From Gemmatales bacterium (GTDB taxonomy: Bacteria > Planctomycetota > Planctomycetia > Gemmatales > HRBIN36): a DNA stretch of 64,000 nt. Both the position numbers and the translations under genes were made by a program. Below are positions 29,743 to 45,726 of this stretch, piece by piece. Position 1 is the first letter of the stretch; every line of letters starts with the position of its first letter. The stretch spans positions 572,342 through 636,341 of the forward strand of contig JBEPZY010000003.1 in assembly GCA_041640595.1 (NCBI GenBank), in the 5' to 3' direction. Under the pieces are notes generated by a model, which saw only the letters and a program-made list of their open reading frames with translations, was not told the DNA's origin and did no database searches.

Positions 29743-30612
29743 TCATGGAGCATCTTCGGCGTCGTATTCGTAAACACGTACCTGTCCGTTGTTGATGATG
29801 GTTTGCTTGAAGCGCTGGCGGACACTCGGTTGCGGCGCCGAAGCAGGCAAGCTGGCTACCGCTGGTCGGGTTTCCGCAGGAGCTTCCGTAGCCAGTCCGG
29901 CCAGGCGTTTGTGCCAGCTCGGCGAGGCCCCACTCGTTTTCACCTCCTGTGCGTCGTCCGGTCGCCTCACCACCAGCCGCAAGCTGCCGGTGTCCGCATA
30001 AACGCTCAAAATCTCCGCCTGTTCCAGCGTCACCCGCAACGTAACCCGATCATACGTCTTGGCGATGGTGCCTTCGGGAATCTGCGGTTGCTGGTCAATC
30101 GCCAGGACTTCGATGTTCTGCAAAATGGTGTGGGCATACGGTTGATTTCCCTCTCCTCGCATCTGCGTCGCCACCACATCCACCCGTGAACCGGGCAGAA
30201 TGAATCCGCCCGCGGCACTATCCAGCGTAACTTTGACGGTCATCAGACGTTCGCCTTCACGGAGTTTGGCAACCAGCGGCTCCTGTCCCGGCGGCAACAG
30301 ATCCTTTTCGGTGAGCACCTTCCCCGCCTCGATAGCCGCACGTAAGGTCCGACCGCGAGCTTTGCGAATATCGCCAATCGCGTCAGCGGGCACTTCACCT
30401 TTGGGGTAAGTCTTCAGCTCAAACCACTGTTTGGGGTCGTCGAGAGTGGTGTAACCGGGCACCCGCTGGGTTGCCACCAGCACGGTAACGTTTTCCTCCA
30501 CCGGGGCCGGTTCCGCCTGGCGACCGAAGTATTTGCTCGTCGCCACGCTGGCGACCAGTCCAGCCAGCACTGCTAATGCCACGGTCAGAATCATTTTGGG
30601 CTTGATTCTCAT
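29743..30612 (-). CDS. cpaB: Flp pilus assembly protein CpaB/RcpC
   Basis: SAF-like domain, GFILPGSRVDV and ILQNIEVLAIDQ. Confidence 0.9.
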   Translation of the reverse strand: MRIKPKMILTVALAVLAGLVASVATSKYFGRQAEPAPVEENVTVLVATQRVPGYTTLDDPKQWFELKTYPKGEVPADAIGDIRKARGRTLRAAIEAGKVLTEKDLLPPGQEPLVAKLREGERLMTVKVTLDSAAGGFILPGSRVDVVATQMRGEGNQPYAHTILQNIEVLAIDQQPQIPEGTIAKTYDRVTLRVTLEQAEILSVYADTGSLRLVVRRPDDAQEVKTSGASPSWHKRLAGLATEAPAETRPAVASLPASAPQPSVRQRFKQTIINNGQVRVYEYDAEDAP

Positions 30613-30879
30613 GAGTCCGCCTCGTTTCCAGGGAGCTGGTCCAAGATGCACCGAGGGGATTACCTATCGCGCGGGGCAGGGTTCATTCCGACCGGACAGG
30701 GCTGGATTTACCCCTGGTCAGACCCTGCCCGATTTGTGCTTCGGCGAAAATCTAGCGAAGACTTGAGATTTTCCGGTTCTGAGGAAAAAATCGAATTTGC
30801 CGGAGTTACCAGGTTTGCGTCGGTTTTGGCGGCCCCGCTGCTATGAAGCGGAGCACCTGCACGGCATGATGCTGGCAAT

Positions 30880-31461
30880 TCACAAGGACAGGCCACGCCA
30901 CGCCAGGTAGCCAAGAAAGCCCAGACACAGCGGCAGGCCGTAAGGAAGCAACACCATTCGCCGTTTGCGCTCCGCCGCCCGTTGGGTGATTTGCTGCCAG
31001 TTCGCAGCCTGTCCCAGGTCGCTGAGAATGTCGCGGGTGTTTTGCCGGTATTCCCGCCAGCGACCGTGCCAGAACATCATGGCAATGGCCAGCACGCCCC
31101 CGATCACCGCCGCCAGGCAGAACCCGTACAGCACGATCCAGAATCCCTCCGTCCAGCCATACAGGGCCCCGATCCAGGCACCGAATCCCATTTGCATTTT
31201 CACATCGCCCGCGCCCATGCCGCCGATGGCGTAAACTGGCCAGAGCAACACAAAGCCGAAGACCAGCAGCGCCAGGCTCGCTCCCAATCCCGACCAGCCG
31301 TGCCACCATCCTGCCAGACCCAAACCGCTCAACATCATGCCGAAGGTCAGCCAGTTGGGCACTTTGAGCTTCCAGCAGTCAATGACCGCGCCGGTTATCA
31401 GCAGGGCGCTGAGTAAAGCCAGGGGCCAGCTTTCGTAGAAAACGTTCACCCAGTCGGTCAT
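30880..31461 (-). CDS. cpaA: Prepilin peptidase CpaA/TadV (A24)
   Basis: IDCWKLKVPNWLT, GGMGAGDVKM and LPYGLPL. Confidence 0.9.
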   Translation of the reverse strand: MTDWVNVFYESWPLALLSALLITGAVIDCWKLKVPNWLTFGMMLSGLGLAGWWHGWSGLGASLALLVFGFVLLWPVYAIGGMGAGDVKMQMGFGAWIGALYGWTEGFWIVLYGFCLAAVIGGVLAIAMMFWHGRWREYRQNTRDILSDLGQAANWQQITQRAAERKRRMVLLPYGLPLCLGFLGYLAWRGLSL

Positions 31462-31728
31462 GGAATGGCTCCCGAAGTGCCAGGTTGCTTTACCGTGAAG
31501 ATTAGAAAAAAGCACCGATTGCAGACCGGGCAGCATCACTCGCGGAATTGGCCTCGTCGCTGACAATGTGCGCTACCGTGCACTCGCCGCAGCAACAGCC
31601 CGCAAGGGTTTCGCAGGCCGGGCTTGCATTGACCCGACCTGACGAAACCCCAACAGGTCGCTGAATCACGTGAGCCAGCGTTTCGGCACAGGGCCAGGTC
31701 AGCTCCAATGGACACGCCTGCCCGGACG

Positions 31729-31911
31729 CTACTGGGCGTTCTGGATGGTGTCGCTGACCAGCTGGAATTTGCCCTTAGCACTCTGGCCGAGGCTGGTAAT
31801 GGCCGCGATGCAGACCACAATGATCAGGGCCAGCATCACCGCGTACTCGACGGCGGTCGGGCCATCTTCGCTTTGCACGAAGCGTTTCACCGCATGCAGC
31901 ACAGACCTCAT
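31729..31911 (-). CDS. flp: Flp type IVb pilin
   Basis: 60 aa with EDG/PTAVEYAVMLALI Flp motif. GGAGG RBS. Confidence 0.92.
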   Translation of the reverse strand: MRSVLHAVKRFVQSEDGPTAVEYAVMLALIIVVCIAAITSLGQSAKGKFQLVSDTIQNAQ

Positions 31912-31982
31912 GGCAGTACCCTCCAGTTGATGGGTGCCCAGACTCATCTTTTCCCGGCAGACCGTCTGCCAGGCTCGATCGC

Positions 31983-32198
31983 TCACGGTGAAGGAGAAGG
32001 CGAGGGAGCGGGAGACGGCGGACCAAATCCGCCTTCGCTAATCACTCGCTGGAATCCCGAAAGAGTGGGATTGCCGATACTGGCAATGGCACTGAAGCAG
32101 ACCAGAATGATGAGCGCCAGCAGAATGGCGTACTCGATACTGGTTGTCCCATCTTCAGTTGACCGCCACTTCCGTAAGCAGCGGACGAGTCGCGCCAT
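31983..32198 (-). CDS. Second Flp-family pilin with Pro/Ser tail
   Basis: EDG/TTSIEYAILLALI motif. Ends GPPSPAPSPSPSP. Confidence 0.85.
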   Translation of the reverse strand: MARLVRCLRKWRSTEDGTTSIEYAILLALIILVCFSAIASIGNPTLSGFQRVISEGGFGPPSPAPSPSPSP

Positions 32199-38659: not shown

Positions 38660-39577
38660 TCAGCGGTCGGTGAAAGGGATGAATTTGGCGCGATCGCGGA
38701 CGAGCGGGTGTTCGTCTGCGTGTAACTGCTTGACAAGTTCCGGCGTCCGCAGGAAGGGATATTTCAATAGCACATGCACCACATACCGCCGCGAATACCA
38801 CGCCCCATCGTTAGCCAGCCGTTGCAAGTGATCCCGAGTCAGCTTGATCTCAGCAAACTGCCTATGTCCACGCTGCATTCGCCACGCTGTCGTCTCAACC
38901 AGGTGGTTGGTCAATTCGACTTCCTGTAACGTGAAACGGGTTGAACAGGAATTATATACCGCCCATTCATGTCTCCTAAATTCTTCCCAGGCTTCGCATG
39001 GGAGTTCCTCAAACAGGTATTCGATGAGCTCTCTTGGCACATCTTTTTTGTACTCCTGCAAAACCTGACCGTAGGTTCTTCTTTTCCACTCCTTCGGAAC
39101 ATCTAGCTGATAAGGGCATTCAGCAACACTATCTACAAGGCGAAGCAGATAGTGAGCCGTGATTGCCACAGACCTTCTCTCGTCCGGCTCCTCCGGGTCT
39201 CTCCACTTTTCCAGACTCCCATCAGGATAGCATGACAGATACTTCACCAGCTCGCTCCGCGCGTCGTCGTGATGGCCTAAAAGGAGCAAATGAACACCTT
39301 TGGCCTGCAGTTCTATAAAGGGAACCTTGTCGTGTGTTAGTAGGACCAGAACAGCCTGGATAAACTCCGCAGGACTGTCCAGGTAGACCTCGTTCAGAGT
39401 CCGAACGGGCACAGTGTCCTTCCCTGACATGACTTTATATGACTTTGTCTTCCGAACTTGTTCAACATTAAGTTTTGGCCGGTCTTGAGCCGAAGCTATG
39501 AGGAACCAGCCTAAACTCAACGAGCCTACGAACGCAAGCAGGAAATGCGGGAAATTTAGATGTGGGCCCCTGCACAT
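38660..39577 (-). CDS. Secreted hypothetical protein with HEAT-like C-terminus; candidate immunity protein
   Basis: AGGAGG RBS, signal peptide ending ASA-Q, and LHADEHPLVRDRA HEAT-like end. Starts 31 nt after the upstream hydrolase module. Confidence 0.7.
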   Translation of the reverse strand: MCRGPHLNFPHFLLAFVGSLSLGWFLIASAQDRPKLNVEQVRKTKSYKVMSGKDTVPVRTLNEVYLDSPAEFIQAVLVLLTHDKVPFIELQAKGVHLLLLGHHDDARSELVKYLSCYPDGSLEKWRDPEEPDERRSVAITAHYLLRLVDSVAECPYQLDVPKEWKRRTYGQVLQEYKKDVPRELIEYLFEELPCEAWEEFRRHEWAVYNSCSTRFTLQEVELTNHLVETTAWRMQRGHRQFAEIKLTRDHLQRLANDGAWYSRRYVVHVLLKYPFLRTPELVKQLHADEHPLVRDRAKFIPFTDR

Positions 39578-39608
39578 AAGTGTTCCTCCTGTTAGTCAGA
39601 AGCCAAAC

Positions 39609-41600
39609 CTAGCGCATATTCACACGCCCTAGAAAGCGGTTCCGAAGCTCCTCCTGAACAAATTGATCATCATCAATCGCTCTGTGGTCTAATTGTTGGC
39701 CAGGATTGATCTGCGGGGCGTTTACATTGCGATCGACATTGCTACCGGGAACCGGCGCTCCTTGGGGTCCCCCCAATTGCTGATAGTAATTGGCATGAAA
39801 CTGAGTCCGCCGAGGCAGATTGGTTTCCGCTCTCGGAGGAACGGACCCATGTTCGATGGCATCCACATAAGCAGTAAACGGAACCACGAAGTGGCGCTGG
39901 AATGGATTTTGTGGGTTGGCGAGGTCCTGGTCAATCCGTGCCAGAAGGTTGCGGGTCGCTCCGCCGCCGTAACTGAAACCCATCACTACTAAATTGTTGA
40001 TATTGTGGCGATTTACCGCGCGTAGCGCCCAGTCATAAGCCAGCCCTGTACCGGCTTGGTCCCCTCCACGCTGCTCGTTTTCACCAAACAGGTGCACGTC
40101 ATAGCCATCCTCAGCATATAGCCGCTGCCTGGCAAAATTGAACAAACCGTTCCCTCTCTGATTCGTCATCGGATCAGGATTTTGTGTGAAGCCGCCAATT
40201 ACGATGACCGTGGTTTGGAAGCGATAGAACGTCAGGCTGTCGGACTGGCCCACCACCTGTCCGTTGGCATTCCGTGCCTCGAAAGTCAACACCGCATTCA
40301 CCGGCTGCTGCTGATCCCCTATCCATTCCACCCACAAGGTCGCCGTTCCCCCTTGCCCAAAATTGACCTTCACCTCATTAAGATTATTACCAAACAAACC
40401 GTTCCCGGGTTTCGCCGGCCCCGTCCAGACCTGCAGCACACCGGCACTCCGTTTCAAGTAATAGTCGATTCCCGCCGGTGGTTGTTGCACGCCAAACTGC
40501 AAGTCTATCCGCACCAGGTCATCCTCACCCGCCACCCCGTTGTTGTCGCGATAATCAGCCATCCCATCATTATCATCGTCATCGCCATTGAAGCGAATCC
40601 CCACGCCGGGATTATCCTCTTGATTGGCCGGTACCGGCGGCACCTGCTGCTCCTGCCGAGCTGCGTTCGGTGGCATAAACCGGTTGTACGGCCGATAGCC
40701 TGTCAGGTCTAATACTAAATTCTGAGGTGGCGGTTGCTGATTCGGCTTTACTTGCACCTGTACCTGAGCCACCGCAGAAGTGGCTCTACCATCGCTAACC
40801 TGGTAATAGAATTCATCCTCACCAGTGTATCCCGCTGCTGGAGTATAGACGAGCAATCCACCCAGGTCAACCATCTCACCATGCCGCGGCCCAGTTATGA
40901 TTGTGTAGCTCAGAAGATCACCATCCGGATCATACGCTGCCCAGGCATACTCTGAACCGAGTGCCGGTTCAGCCATGATGCTCAGACTAAACATCACGAG
41001 GGTATCCTCAACCGTCTCGATAGACATATCTACCGCCACCGGGGCCCGATTCGAAATCTCGATGGTGACGCTCGCTATTTCACTAGCCGAGATACCATCC
41101 GACCAGTAATAAGTAAAGGTTTCCGCACCGACAAATCCTTCCGGCGGGATATAAGAGAAAGTTCCGTCTAATCCTAAGTACACCGAGCCCACGCCTGGTT
41201 CCGAATTCAAGAACGCATAAATCGGATCACCATCCGGATCATAACCATCCAGTTGGCCACTGACCAGCTGATTCCGATAAGTATGAACAACTGCTTGGTA
41301 AGCCACCGGTGCGCTGTTATACACATCTATCGAAACCGTCACCGTGTTGCCGGTGGTCAAGCCGTCCGACCAGGTGTAGGTGGAACTGTCGGCGCCGATG
41401 TAGTTCGTGTTCGGTGTGTACGTAAAGGTGCCGTCGGGATGGAATGTTAGTTTACCGTTGGTCGGGCCCGTTGGTGGGGCCGGAGGCTGATTACGCCGAG
41501 AAAACGCCGGGGCTTGAAAGCATTGGCACGGTAATAGCGTCGCCGTCGGGATCGTTGCCGTATACGGAGACGCTCAGTCCGTGATTAGTGGAGGCACAAA
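39609..41600 (-). pseudogene. Headless Ig-like (Big_9/cadherin-like) repeat protein with C-terminal GxSxG alpha/beta hydrolase; 5' part disrupted (continuous ORF 39609-41360)
   Basis: Repeats YDPDGD...DGTFSY...F.Y..SDG, an acidic NGDDDDNDG...GEDDL motif and VMGFSYGGG. Homologous coding extends upstream through a TAA (41491-41493) and a 13-nt duplication frameshift. Confidence 0.7.
41488..41562. repeat. 75-bp direct repeat, copy B (copy A at 44269-44343)
   Basis: 70 of 75 positions are identical to copy A by manual alignment. Confidence 0.92.
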
Positions 41601-41720
41601 AAATGGGCTAAGGGAGTTAACTCTGCTTGGCCGATGCCGCAAAAAAAATCTGAGTGTTTCCTTGCCTTCTCAGTCCTGAGAGCGAATTGTTTATATAGTT
41701 GTTCGCTATAAGCGCGGTAA

Positions 41721-42542
41721 TCATTCAAGACCAATTAGCTTCAACTGCGACAGTTTCCAGGGCAGGTCTTTGGAGGCGGGATCCTCGGCCTTGCCAGAGA
41801 CAAATTCTATATCACAGGGACCTATTTGGCATTGAATGATCCATTTTTCGGATTTCGCATCCCAACGCAGGTCGGTAAGTTTGATTCCCCGTCTTCCGAG
41901 CAGCTGTTGGGATTCCCAATCCGCAAGACCCACGAATAGAGAGAGTTTTTCCCCGAGCGTAATTTGTATCGAGCCTTCAACGCTGATCGGCAAGCTGTGC
42001 TGCCAGATGCTAGAAAAATACCTATGATGAACGATACTTTCCAACTGCCGTTCCTCCGGTTTTGCAGGCAACTTTGGTGGTGCGTCCGGGTCCCTAAGTG
42101 TTTTGCTCAGATCAAGCTGGTAAAACGCAATCTCACTCGGTCCGGCGATGAACGCCAGGCCTATACGGTCGCGGTCTCGGGCTACCACTCGGAAGTCGCG
42201 GGGTATATATTTTGGCTTAGTAAATTGGGTGTCGCGATAATTTTCAATATAGTTAACTTTCCAGACCTCTCTGCGTTCCAATTCGCTACTAACCACTCCA
42301 CGCAGCACCACCCAAATCGCCTTGTAGGTTGTCCCCGGCGGGGCACCGTAATCATACTCCATTTTAACCTCTTCCATGTAAATCTCGAACTTGCGATTAT
42401 CAGGCAATGGAAACGTAGCCACAGGCTTATTCGGAGAGCTACTCACCGGCTTACCCTCATTCGGCAAGAGCCTAGTCGTGCAGGCGAGGAAGAAAATTAA
42501 TCCTGACGCGAATGCTGCTAATTGTTTTACACCTCTCAGCAT
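41721..42542 (-). CDS. Hypothetical lipoprotein; candidate immunity protein
   Basis: TAAGGAGG RBS before ATG at 42542 and lipobox-like FFLAC. Follows the transglutaminase-like module. Confidence 0.72.
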   Translation of the reverse strand: MLRGVKQLAAFASGLIFFLACTTRLLPNEGKPVSSSPNKPVATFPLPDNRKFEIYMEEVKMEYDYGAPPGTTYKAIWVVLRGVVSSELERREVWKVNYIENYRDTQFTKPKYIPRDFRVVARDRDRIGLAFIAGPSEIAFYQLDLSKTLRDPDAPPKLPAKPEERQLESIVHHRYFSSIWQHSLPISVEGSIQITLGEKLSLFVGLADWESQQLLGRRGIKLTDLRWDAKSEKWIIQCQIGPCDIEFVSGKAEDPASKDLPWKLSQLKLIGLE

Positions 42543-42612
42543 GGTTGACCTCCTTAGCGGTTCGTTATGGTTGCAGTTGAGTGATGAGGCGTTCTGCAAC
42601 TGCAGCTAGGAA

Positions 42613-44244
42613 TCACAACTCCACAAATCTTGTTTCTATCCTTTTAGGGTCGTTCTTCTTGTAAAAGGTGCCGCCAAACCTGTCCTGTCCGAATCCATCT
42701 AGAGAAGCGTTTTCCCAGGCGTCTTGCGTCCTAAATGGGCCAGTGCCATAAGACGGATCGTAGTATTGACCTTTAAGACGCACAATATAATGGTTGTAAA
42801 AATTGCTAGGGGGATCATCGTTTCCTTGTCCAGGAACGCCTCTCAGTTCCGTTACGTCAGTAGAGCGATAAATGTATGGTTTCGTCGCAGGCGAGGTCGG
42901 TTTGCCAAAGCGCCAGTTCTTTACTAGTATCCGAGTCTCGGCAGGCAGTCCGTCAGGCGTCATTGGACGGCCAGCAGCATTGACTGGTTCGTCTATGTTG
43001 AATACATGCACTCGTTTCACGTCGGTTATACCTTGGGCGAGCATGATATCCCTCAAAAAGTACGCCCAGGAGCCGCACTGCCCGTTTGCGTGGGCTAAAA
43101 GTTGCTGTGTGTTGACCGCAGTGGCCCTGCCGCCATCCCAGTACCTCAATTGAGTGCCATCCACCCGGCGGACTTCCCGATCAGTGAAATCACTCCAAAT
43201 TGCTGAGATAACATCCGATTCGTTTGCTTTGCCGTCAGCGTTCTTCGAGCCCAGATGCACCAGGGTATGGTATAAGTTCACCCCTGGTTTGAGGGCAGGG
43301 TCGGCAAAAGTAAGGTACAAAGGATTTTGCGTGGTCCCGGCCTTCGTCCAGGTTGAGTTGGCGCGCTGGCTGTCGGAGGTGGCTTGCCAGTCCAGCCTGA
43401 AGAGATTTGCACCAACGTAAGCTTGCACCACATTCGGAAATGCCACCGGCGACTCCGTCTCGTCAAGCACGAGTTCAGTCGGGTTCGTCGGGTCCACGCG
43501 CACAGCCTTCGGCCCTACGTGAATCTGGAATCCCGTCGCAGGGTCCGCCGGCCCCGTCGCCATCACATAAATCGGGCCGCCACCCCACGCAGTATCTAAG
43601 ACGAACCGGGCACTCACTTTTAACGTTGCACCCCGGGTGTAAGCGTATGGCCAGCTATGCTCACCCGCATCCTCCGCATCCCCGTCTAAGTTTGTGTCCA
43701 ACCAGTGTTCCGAACTATAGGCCACGTCGGGAGCTATTGCTCCAGTCGGGTCCAGCTCCGGGTCCCGGTACACGGTATGCCCGCCGCTGAACGTTACCGA
43801 CCGGCTACCAAGGATTTTAGCCGTGTGAACAACGACCGTTTGTGTCGCCTCGGCAACGCCATCACTAACGGTGTACGTGAACGAGTCGTCCCCAGTGTGG
43901 TCGGCAGCTGGATAATAAGCAAAATCACCGTTGGGATTCATCACCAGATGAGCACCGGATGGGAGTCGCATCCACTGCGGGAGTGGCTGATCGTCAATCT
44001 TGACCACGCGTAAGCTATCGCCATCGGCGTCCGTATCGTTCGCCAGGACGTTTCCCCAAACGGCACTCCCCGCCAGGACGTAATACTCGTCATTTACAGC
44101 CTCCGGAGCAGTGTTATGAACAGCAATCCAAGCCATAGCCAGGCCTAAAGCTATACCATCCGTAAACCCAAATACAAAAGCATCCGTGCCAGTATAACCA
44201 GCCGCCGGTGTATATATAAATCTGCCATCATCATTCAATACCAC
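42613..44244 (-). CDS. Ig-like repeats plus C-terminal transglutaminase/papain-like domain (in-frame continuation of 44272-45186)
   Basis: NVLANDTDADGD repeat and GQCGSWA...NHYIV...YYDPSYG (Cys-His-Asp). Separated from the upstream stop by exactly 27 nt in the same frame. Confidence 0.72.
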   Translation of the reverse strand: MVLNDDGRFIYTPAAGYTGTDAFVFGFTDGIALGLAMAWIAVHNTAPEAVNDEYYVLAGSAVWGNVLANDTDADGDSLRVVKIDDQPLPQWMRLPSGAHLVMNPNGDFAYYPAADHTGDDSFTYTVSDGVAEATQTVVVHTAKILGSRSVTFSGGHTVYRDPELDPTGAIAPDVAYSSEHWLDTNLDGDAEDAGEHSWPYAYTRGATLKVSARFVLDTAWGGGPIYVMATGPADPATGFQIHVGPKAVRVDPTNPTELVLDETESPVAFPNVVQAYVGANLFRLDWQATSDSQRANSTWTKAGTTQNPLYLTFADPALKPGVNLYHTLVHLGSKNADGKANESDVISAIWSDFTDREVRRVDGTQLRYWDGGRATAVNTQQLLAHANGQCGSWAYFLRDIMLAQGITDVKRVHVFNIDEPVNAAGRPMTPDGLPAETRILVKNWRFGKPTSPATKPYIYRSTDVTELRGVPGQGNDDPPSNFYNHYIVRLKGQYYDPSYGTGPFRTQDAWENASLDGFGQDRFGGTFYKKNDPKRIETRFVEL

Positions 44245-44268
44245 CGTGCCATTCGTCGGAGCGGAGAT

Positions 44269-44343
44269 TGATTACGCCCAGAAAACGCTGGGGCTTGAAA
44301 GCATTGGCACGGTGATAGCTTCGCCGTCGGGATCGTAGCCGTA
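44269..44343. repeat. 75-bp direct repeat, copy A (contains the in-frame TAA)
   Basis: TGATTACGCCCAGAAAACGCTGGGGCTTGAAAGCATTGGCACGGT... is shared with 41488-41562. Confidence 0.92.
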
Positions 44344-45186
44344 GAGCTGGCCGACCAACTCGCGGTCGTGCAGCACGCTGAAGCTGGCGTCGTAGGCATA
44401 CGGCGCGTTGTTCGTGATCAGGATGTTAACCATCGCGGTGTAGCTGTCTAAGTCGTCGCTAATCGTCAGGCTGAACGAGTCGGTACCAGTAAAGTTTGGC
44501 GGTGGGGTATAGCTAAATGTGCCGTCCGCCCATACGGTTAGCGAGCCACCCGACGGCAGGCTCATCGGCTCCCCGTAACTAATCGCCTGACCGTTGATGT
44601 GAGTAATGCGTATCGCGTCGCCGTCCGGATCATAAGCACCACTAAGTAAGTTGCCCATTAAGTCCCGATCGTGCAGGATACTAAACTCCTGGTCGCCTAA
44701 CTGCGGCATATTGTTGAACACATTGATAGTTACCCAGGCCGTGCTCTCAGATTCCCCGTCGCTGATCGTATAGCTAAAACTTACCTGCCCCTTATATCGC
44801 AGCGTCGGCGTAAAGGTGAAACTGCCATCCTGCTCGACGGTGAGATAACCGTAAATCAAGTCGCCATCCTGCAAGGTAATCTGCGTGCCGGGTGTATAGG
44901 TCTGACCGTTGATGCGGGTGATGCTTAGTGTGTTGGCGTCGGGATCGTAATCGTTCGACAGGAGGTTGGCGAACAGTGTGGTGTCGTGCAACAGGTCGAA
45001 CCAATCGTCCGCGGCGAAGGGCGAACTATTGCCTAAACCGTTGGGAGCATTGCGATCCTCTAACATTTCGACCCTCAACCGAACCTGACTCGGCGGACTT
45101 AGATGCCGATTGCGTTTGAGCCGACTCCAGAGTTCACACCACCAGGCGCGCAATCGCCCGTGTGTGTGTGTGCTCGTTCCAGGCAC
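44272..45186 (-). CDS. N-terminal part of an exported Ig-like repeat protein with planctomycete extracellular motif
   Basis: Basic N-terminus, then LRVEMLEDRNAP, then LLSNDYDPDA/GAYDPDGD repeats. Stops in the middle of a repeat. Confidence 0.75.
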   Translation of the reverse strand: MPGTSTHTHGRLRAWWCELWSRLKRNRHLSPPSQVRLRVEMLEDRNAPNGLGNSSPFAADDWFDLLHDTTLFANLLSNDYDPDANTLSITRINGQTYTPGTQITLQDGDLIYGYLTVEQDGSFTFTPTLRYKGQVSFSYTISDGESESTAWVTINVFNNMPQLGDQEFSILHDRDLMGNLLSGAYDPDGDAIRITHINGQAISYGEPMSLPSGGSLTVWADGTFSYTPPPNFTGTDSFSLTISDDLDSYTAMVNILITNNAPYAYDASFSVLHDRELVGQLYGYDPDGEAITVPMLSSPSVFWA

Positions 45187-45329
45187 ACACAGCGGTCAAC
45201 GAAGCTCATCATGGCTAGCCTCCTCTTGGGAACAGACCGAAGGGGAAATCTGCGTCGGGTCGCCTGATGCCCGCGTGCCCGACTCCCGATAGGCACCGAC
45301 CGAAGTGGAGACGGCCACCAACCGCAGCC

Positions 45330-45413
45330 CAAGCGACTGCAATCGCAGGTAAAGCAACCGCAATCGCAGCTCAAGCGACCGCAATCGCAGGTGAAGCGAC
45401 GGCAATCCAAGCT
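45330..45413. repeat. Four 21-bp tandem repeats
   Basis: CAAGCGACTGCAATCGCAGGT / AAAGCAACCGCAATCGCAGCT / CAAGCGACCGCAATCGCAGGT / GAAGCGACGGCAATCCAAGCT. Confidence 0.9.
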
Positions 45414-45609
45414 GAAGTTACCAAAAACCACGCCGCCCTCCGGAGCAAACGACAAAAATTTTTACTGCGGCGGTAATTTTCGGCAAGTTGCGGACTGTGC
45501 ATAGGTTACGGAGGCGGCGGACGGGCCCGATCCGGCAATTGTGCGAAACGCAGAAAGGGGACCCGACAAAGGGGCCCATAGCCAAGGCAAACTCTAATCC
45601 CGGGTCAGG

Positions 45610-45726
45610 GCGAGAAAGTGCTTTTCGACCGGTGCGGAATGTAAAGGGAGAAATACAGACCAACATGTCGAGCATTCATGGTCGCGAAAAAGTGTTATTC
45701 GGCCGGTGCGGAATGTAAAAGGAGAA
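45610..45726. repeat. Two 43-bp imperfect direct repeats separated by 31 bp
   Basis: 45610-45652 and 45684-45726, 5 mismatches, shared core CCGGTGCGGAATGTAAA. Confidence 0.88.

Follow-up and report, generated by a model that had tools for sequence, protein, structure and literature searches.

A candidate polymorphic toxin locus with a planctomycete surface motif and a putative repeat-tract switch in thermophilic Gemmatales

A 64-kb stretch of Gemmatales DNA (the window, meaning the whole of the 64,000 nucleotides analyzed) carries on its minus strand a locus, genes A to D, in which a planctomycete cell-surface motif is followed by a stalk of immunoglobulin (Ig)-like repeats, by enzyme-like C-terminal domains (tips) and by genes for putatively exported partners. 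On the points open to test, the genome organization is that of a polymorphic toxin system, an identification that we regard as very probable; that the locus works by a toxin-immunity mechanism with a switch, as a variant of the polymorphic toxin system in thermophilic Gemmatales, is a less secure reading, and the one that we favor as probable. The window is part of contig C3 of a 4.45-Mb genome (mean GC 0.576, 95% complete); the metagenome runs that hold this stretch are mostly from hot springs and mats, and the named homologues are from Gemmatales. Beyond the initial annotation of this DNA, we report a Shine-Dalgarno (SD)-led ATG start, a candidate (CA)n frame switch, larger arrays elsewhere in the genome, and the broken state of the window copy.

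Stalks, tips and their partner genes

A full-length gene of this family has an SD-led ATG, a (CA)n tract, the LEDR motif, Big_9 repeats in varying number, a linker and a single tip out of many; the partner gene downstream of the tip is co-oriented and tip-specific, with its own SD sequence and a product predicted to be exported. Re-reading of the sequence agrees with the initial annotation as to the minus-strand order A, B, C, D, and as to gene A being one frame (45186-42613) with a single internal TAA (44274-44272) that contains the LEDR motif, Ig repeats and a Cys-His-Asp tip. The proposed start of A at GTG 45186 has to be moved: it lacks an SD sequence, and the SD-led start is the ATG at 45212-45210, behind an SD at 45224-45219 (45210..45224, minus strand, as are all features of A to D), an arrangement repeated in loci L035, L037, L038, L043, L044 and L053. 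Between this ATG and the motif lies a 13-nt (CA)n tract (45160..45172). The motif itself, LxVExLEDRxxP (45043..45078), is one conservative change from the Tuwongella consensus LxLExLExRxxP, and scores 15.5 bits against PF07595, below the cut-off of 25.5 bits. The head stalk (44272..45042) consists of Big_9/cadherin-like (tandem-95) Ig repeats (PF17963, E 2.6e-33; NF012211) and ends at the in-frame TAA, and the rest of protein A (42613..44271) contains two Ig repeats, a beta-sandwich and the tip. Both halves of protein A, like module C, give Pfam matches to Big_9 and cadherin-like repeats. Tips and partners were also said to be AT-rich, and at 0.50-0.53 GC they do lie below the genome mean, but the signal is only modest because the flanking sulfatase upstream is itself at 0.544.

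That tips can be exchanged on a common stalk, as the initial annotation proposed, is borne out by relatives of the locus. A metagenome scan with the head gene recovers 23 loci, and contig C4 of the same genome holds further cassettes of stalk, tip and partner at ~199.9-239.1 kb. In locus L037 two long copies share the same N-terminus, have 10 and 4 Big_9 stretches, and end in unrelated tips followed by unrelated partners. At least seven tip types stand on the Big_9 stalk in this genome and its close Gemmatales relatives: transglutaminase-like, hydrolase, calpain-like (Peptidase_C2, E 2e-7, L050) and DUF3238 (L042, L048) tips are joined by an HExxH domain, a papain-like domain and a hydrophobic-helix domain, these three recognized by motif only, and at least four more are unassigned. 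The breakpoints are sharp. Window gene A and its C4 paralogue are 88-100% identical in nucleotide sequence (100-nt bins) down to position 43042 and 48-64% identical beyond it, and for module C the identity to P0004 falls from 95% ahead of the tip to 56% inside it, and that to P0006 from 92% to 46%. Headless cassettes that keep stalk homology, which had been predicted as orphan tip/partner pairs, are present as module C in the window, in the C4 arrays and in L038, L041 and L047; orphan tips and orphan or tandem D genes also occur.

The tip of protein A is a beta-sandwich plus a transglutaminase-like core, with the putative catalytic Cys, His and Asp codons at 43077, 42792 and 42759. Among 12 aligned homologues the His and Asp are invariant and the Cys is present in at least 90%, and Transglut_core is detected in 4 of the 12 family members. 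A structural model (pLDDT 81) has its best fold matches in transglutaminase 3 and factor XIII (Z 8.6 and 8.1; root mean square deviation (rmsd) 7-8 over 278-294 residues), and the conserved triad and the model together point to a transglutaminase-like cysteine enzyme with a Cys-His-Asp triad on a transglutaminase core, its activity being predicted. This tip is found in 12 of 61 related genomes, in some on other N-termini (G050, G052, G040, G048), and the LEDR motif is recognizable in three of the seven examined; the tip-A protein, used singly as query, gave no match in species genomes. Partner B (41721..42542), predicted to be exported, is the candidate immunity protein for tip A; it matches no Pfam or NCBIfam family, and nothing in the ESM Atlas above chance (0.81). 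Its homologues are found only behind the closest tip-A relatives, namely in the C4 paralogue (30%), L039 (42%) and L041 (88%). The strong SD sequence ascribed to gene B is present; its designation as a lipoprotein is doubtful, the lipobox F-L-A-C being non-canonical and the C4 paralogue having no Cys after the signal peptide.

The headless module at 41573-39609, with Big_9 repeats and a GFSYGG hydrolase tip, is as initially described. It begins with a broken cassette leader (41468..41569) composed of a decayed stalk repeat, a 33-nt segment, a TAA and a frameshift, which is 87% identical over 95 nt to 44343-44249; module C proper follows (40230..41467) with Big_9 repeats (PF17963) and a PAD-middle-domain-like Ig linker (~40736-40230; top Foldseek matches PAD1-4), and then the alpha/beta-hydrolase tip (39609..40229; Ser codon 39974, Asp 39863, His 39686). 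Across 18 homologues the Asp and His are invariant and the Ser is present in at least 90%; one paralogue has Cys in its place. The model (pLDDT 87) matches lipase 6nkc (Z 13.9, rmsd 3.0 over 161 residues), the matches listed being hydrolase-type entries, among them the phospholipase TleB (Z 12.9, tied with many esterases). Motifs and model thus suggest an alpha/beta hydrolase with a G-x-S-x-G elbow and with Asp and His placed on the fold, again with predicted activity, and it is found on several N-termini. Gene D (39577-38660), for which an SD sequence and an N-terminal hydrophobic stretch are confirmed, encodes the candidate immunity protein for the hydrolase tip, predicted to be exported and helical; language-model features suggest a HEAT-like fold (0.93, a lead only), Pfam gives nothing above cut-off, and the D-family profile matches 578 clusters at 50% identity. 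A complex prediction for hydrolase tip and D (score 0.01, mark 0.32) is used neither for nor against their interaction. We also note that a PAD-like linker precedes other tips (papain-like, HExxH-like or unassigned) in the distant planctomycetes L061, L062, L063 and L064, and it may be a general pre-tip domain.

The downstream genes covary with the tip family, as the initial annotation expected. The tally covers 27 hydrolase and 36 transglutaminase-like rows, with repeat fetches, re-assemblies and split halves of one allele merged; kin among the alleles are not independent, and the search queries A3/A4 were built partly from the same sequences, so p-values overstate the significance. A D-family gene follows the hydrolase in 8 of 8 alleles from these arrays or this genus (8 of 10 counting two distant homologues) and follows none of 16 transglutaminase-like tips. 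In the reverse direction, 8 of 11 scorable D genes stand behind a hydrolase (three at contig ends being left out), and of the remaining three one stands alone (G446) and two lie in tandem behind a truncated head (G056). In P0016 a hydrolase is fused to a D-like domain (E 2e-7). In 16 of 17 scorable alleles with a transglutaminase-like tip (three contig-end alleles left out, and L041 merged with the window allele), the next gene is co-oriented and has an N-terminal hydrophobic stretch, and it is never D; the background for this heuristic is 149 of 419 long genes with a co-oriented neighbor. A WD40 partner follows the DUF3238 tip in both instances (2/2).

Other motif-led heads in this genome combine the same kind of leader with He_PIG stalks (C2:394290-407600, L095; C3:561713-570448, L112; C3:419426-425941, L113; C8:40379-43965, L114), and here known toxin domains are found. 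The He_PIG arrays hold a contact-dependent inhibition (CDI) restriction-endonuclease-like domain (PF21111, E 2e-14) and a CdiA-CT RNase A domain (PF18431, E 9e-29), and a tract-less motif-led gene of 1698 codons contains PT-HINT (E 2e-17); besides these CDI-type nuclease or PT-HINT tips the family has alanine-rich coiled coils and leucine-rich repeat or beta-propeller partners. Small genes (170-190 amino acids) stand behind the PF21111 and PT-HINT genes, and genes for exported proteins behind the peptidase and esterase tips, which would suit partners that act in the same place as their tips.

The (CA)n tract and the interrupted head

Because of the 13-nt tract, ATG 45212 is out of frame with the motif and stalk. 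L035, a second assembly with 99.8% identity to the window over 6.8 kb, has a tract of 11 nt, one unit different from the window and in frame, and runs X3 and X15 have one unit more; we thus have a dinucleotide tract in a 5′ coding region whose length shifts the reading frame from one close strain to another. The 4.45-Mb genome has AC tracts of at least 12 nt at only three places, all of them in LEDR-type leaders: the window tract is one, and the others belong to leaders of additional heads with the motif. Two more heads have tracts of 9 and 10 nt, and in the remaining 24 of the 27 listed motif-bearing open reading frames (ORFs) it is at most 7 nt. Tracts of Big_9 heads are 10, 10, 11, 13, 15, 15, 19 or 24 nt long, or interrupted, and two of the eight Big_9 heads with a visible start are in frame (L036 has no ATG, and two short dead heads are left out). 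A tract is present in 2 of 15 family genomes. These patterns make the tract a candidate phase-variation switch. The leader also contains a GT run that provides GTG in all three frames, without an SD sequence, from which leaky starts may arise; a hairpin formed by the GT and CA runs is not supported (z -0.69 against shuffles). Elsewhere, at C2:584430-587140 (L096), a head remnant with an SD sequence, a 15-nt tract and the motif is directly followed by several small exported genes of ~160-180 amino acids, and looks like a partner-only array from which the toxin has been deleted.

The second interruption in gene A is the TAA. It follows a 33-nt extra segment inside a stalk repeat (44278..44310), which is common to the 5′ leaders of headless cassettes (also L038, L041 and L047); the segment has five copies in the genome, four of them followed by TAA, whereas the head of the relative L036 has neither segment nor TAA. 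The stop is not a sequencing error, since the L035 assembly carries it too, and a run X2 contig that spans it differs from the window at three positions, all elsewhere. We infer that the stop entered the head by a crossover with a cassette leader. With a real TAA the window copy cannot display its tip; one Big_9 head was found in the genome, and no intact full-length Big_9 gene. The 33-nt segment, which may be a decayed duplication, matches the neighboring normal repeat at 15 of 33 positions (random control set at 17). A site-specific recombination site or a CRISPR repeat was rejected as its identity, the segment occurring only in stalk repeats and its best match to the tested CRISPR repeat being 10 of 11 nt. 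Contig joints between 41468 and ~44320 are not evidence of excision, because their letters are those of normal stalk repeats. Contigs of RNA run X15 cover the stretch but may hold DNA, and are not counted as expression.

Toxin-immunity and other readings

Under the reading that we favor, the motif would export the protein to the cell surface, where the stalk would hold the tip out towards a neighboring cell, and peptidase/transglutaminase and esterase/lipase tips would damage envelope targets. Neutralization of each tip, at the surface or in the periplasm, would fall to its exported partner; new tips would be loaded by recombination within the stalk repeats, and slippage of the tract would turn a costly toxin on or off while the partners stay translatable. 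At this locus the strain is probably immune but unarmed, since its copy in the window is not only turned off but also interrupted by the TAA. A broader proposal, to which we would give somewhat less than an even chance, is that a distinct class of contact-dependent toxins uses the LEDR/LEPR motif as its export signal, that two kinds of Ig stalk carry both known CDI nucleases and new enzymes directed at the envelope, that exported HEAT-like and beta-propeller proteins are new immunity families, and that the (CA)n tract makes display phase-variable, so that mats mix armed and unarmed immune cells.

Several observations weigh against a toxin-immunity mechanism. None of the Big_9-stalk tips matches a Pfam toxin family. 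No D gene accompanies the two distant full-length hydrolase homologues (G187, G216) that 351 phylum genomes yielded, and in G216 the motif is fused directly to the linker and hydrolase, so that the hydrolase is apparently exportable without a partner. The partners of transglutaminase-like tips belong to several unrelated families, not to a single one, and many partners are beta-propellers of 400-800 amino acids, a fold not found among immunity proteins as of 2012 according to the available part of PMC3482391. Partners and tips have ratios of nonsynonymous to synonymous substitution (dN/dS) of 0.19-1.18 against close strains, and 0.8-1.2 in 4 of 6 pairs, each on few substitutions. None of the five tract-bearing heads in this genome, nor either of two in G003, is in frame, and L035, which is in frame, still carries the TAA.

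Some of these points also suit a diversifying surface system without toxicity, in which the tips would act on the surface of their own cell or on the mat matrix by cross-linking, trimming or deacylation, or would help cells to recognize kin or evade phages, the partner being a chaperone, anchor or substrate and phase variation controlling adhesion. The solo hydrolases and the large beta-propeller partners are compatible with it, as are a stalk of adhesin-type repeats and a motif that is borne by many ordinary surface proteins (27 ORFs here and, in the part of PMC8567305 at hand, 52 genes in Tuwongella); simple sequence repeat (SSR) switches, moreover, are typical of surface molecules (PMC3546556, in part). 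We nonetheless consider it unlikely, since leaders of this kind also head CDI nuclease domains and PT-HINT, partners outlast the loss of a tip as orphans and tandem copies, and unrelated enzyme classes swap at a single position. More doubtful still is a once-active system now in decay, with the tract an inactivating mutational hotspot and the arrays relics without current function: the lack of an intact Big_9 gene, the stops, frameshifts and repeat-insert-repeat scars (see below) in several cassettes, a stop in the G003 C415 head and the 12 of 14 tract-bearing heads that are out of frame are in its favor, but the 2 of 14 in frame are not clearly different from the one-third expectation (binomial 0.11), long tracts are confined to these leaders and kept across paralogues and two species, and reversible switching fits better than decay with a head-stalk dN/dS of 0.13 against L036 and L037 (at dS 0.19 and 0.70) and with the 950-1449 codons that in L037 and L038 stay open from an out-of-frame leader to the tip.

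Compared with known systems, the toxin-immunity reading places the locus close to CdiA/CdiI, Rhs and MafB/MafI, which in the available parts of PMC3482391 and of Jamet and Nassif 2015 (PMC4436062) combine a trafficking N-terminus (for which the LEDR motif is the candidate here) and, like this locus, a repeat stalk, a variable C-terminal enzyme and an adjacent partner gene, and, in the latter source, also have orphan cassettes that share a homologous region, a single N-terminus joined to many different tips, and the same tip on several different N-termini. The present system differs in its LEDR-motif leader, in a Big_9 or He_PIG Ig stalk instead of RHS or filamentous haemagglutinin, in large exported partners that are often beta-propellers, and in the (CA)n frame switch of the leader. 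Identity with CDI or Rhs was rejected: for the stalk repeats Pfam and NCBIfam give only Big_9/cadherin-like/tandem-95, a TPS domain with haemagglutinin repeats or RHS/YD repeats being absent, and no cdiB, vgrG or mafA-type export genes are seen adjoining the window locus. Tle lipase effectors of the type VI secretion system pair with exported Tli partners, and the hydrolase tip resembles them in enzyme fold and triad, with the difference that one hydrolase allele here has Cys for Ser. Tips A and C share enzyme folds and triads with Tox-TGase and Tox-ABhydrolase1-3 (PMC3482391, in part), with no Pfam toxin-family match here.

The general idea has precedent: a single sentence in Zhang et al. 2011 (PMC3113570) refers to predicted nuclease toxins of Planctomyces that carry a signal peptide specific to that genus. 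The likeness lies in a planctomycete-specific leader on predicted toxins, and the passage names no motif, stalk, cassette array or switch. Planctomycete surface-motif proteins (PF07595; Tuwongella, PMC8567305) resemble gene A in having the motif near the N-terminus of a large Ig-repeat protein, but the part of that paper at hand describes surface enzymes and Ig proteins and uses the word "toxin" 0 times. As in the SSR contingency loci of Neisseria, Campylobacter and Helicobacter, a dinucleotide tract lies just after the start of a surface-protein gene and varies between near-identical strains; here, in contrast, the organism is a free-living thermophile, the switched genes are candidate interbacterial toxins, and the variation is that between assembled contigs. 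Neither a system of this kind nor a polymorphic toxin subject to phase variation is the topic of any paper that we found in open-licence PMC and bioRxiv, and the available part of PMC3482391 has no mention of LEPR, Gemmata, cadherin or phase variation. If the toxin-immunity reading is correct, Planctomycetota would gain a defined system of interbacterial conflict, and their N-terminal motif, for long without explanation, would have a cargo that can be tested by its lethality. Control of a polymorphic toxin by a repeat tract would mean that, in a free-living organism of mats, warfare between bacteria is tied to bet-hedging. The arrays also offer a dozen or so small tip/partner pairs, which include candidate new immunity families (the D family and the beta-propeller partners).

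Further observations on the arrays and the window

Repeat-insert-repeat scars (a 37-38 nt repeat and a 35-37 nt insert, period 73-74) break stalk genes at C4:208540-208690 (L001) and in L036 near 1190-1230, and their sizes match the period of the genome's 37-nt CRISPR repeat. The C4 cassette array is itself interrupted by an integrase-bearing element (C4:216397-221000, L002); no tRNA lies beside it. In the window, Flp pilin, prepilin peptidase and CpaB-like genes, which from their sequence motifs we take to be a Tad pilus, lie at 29743-31986, 7 kb from the locus. Upstream of the head, a 43-nt direct repeat (period 74) lies at 45610-45726, and four repeats of 21-nt period at 45319-45423; contigs of three runs are without 43-46 nt at the latter, and the copy number thus varies. 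An 86% copy (309 nt) of the head upstream region is also found at C3:267233-268850 (L004), where it precedes a lone exported lipoprotein-like gene that is partner-like in style.

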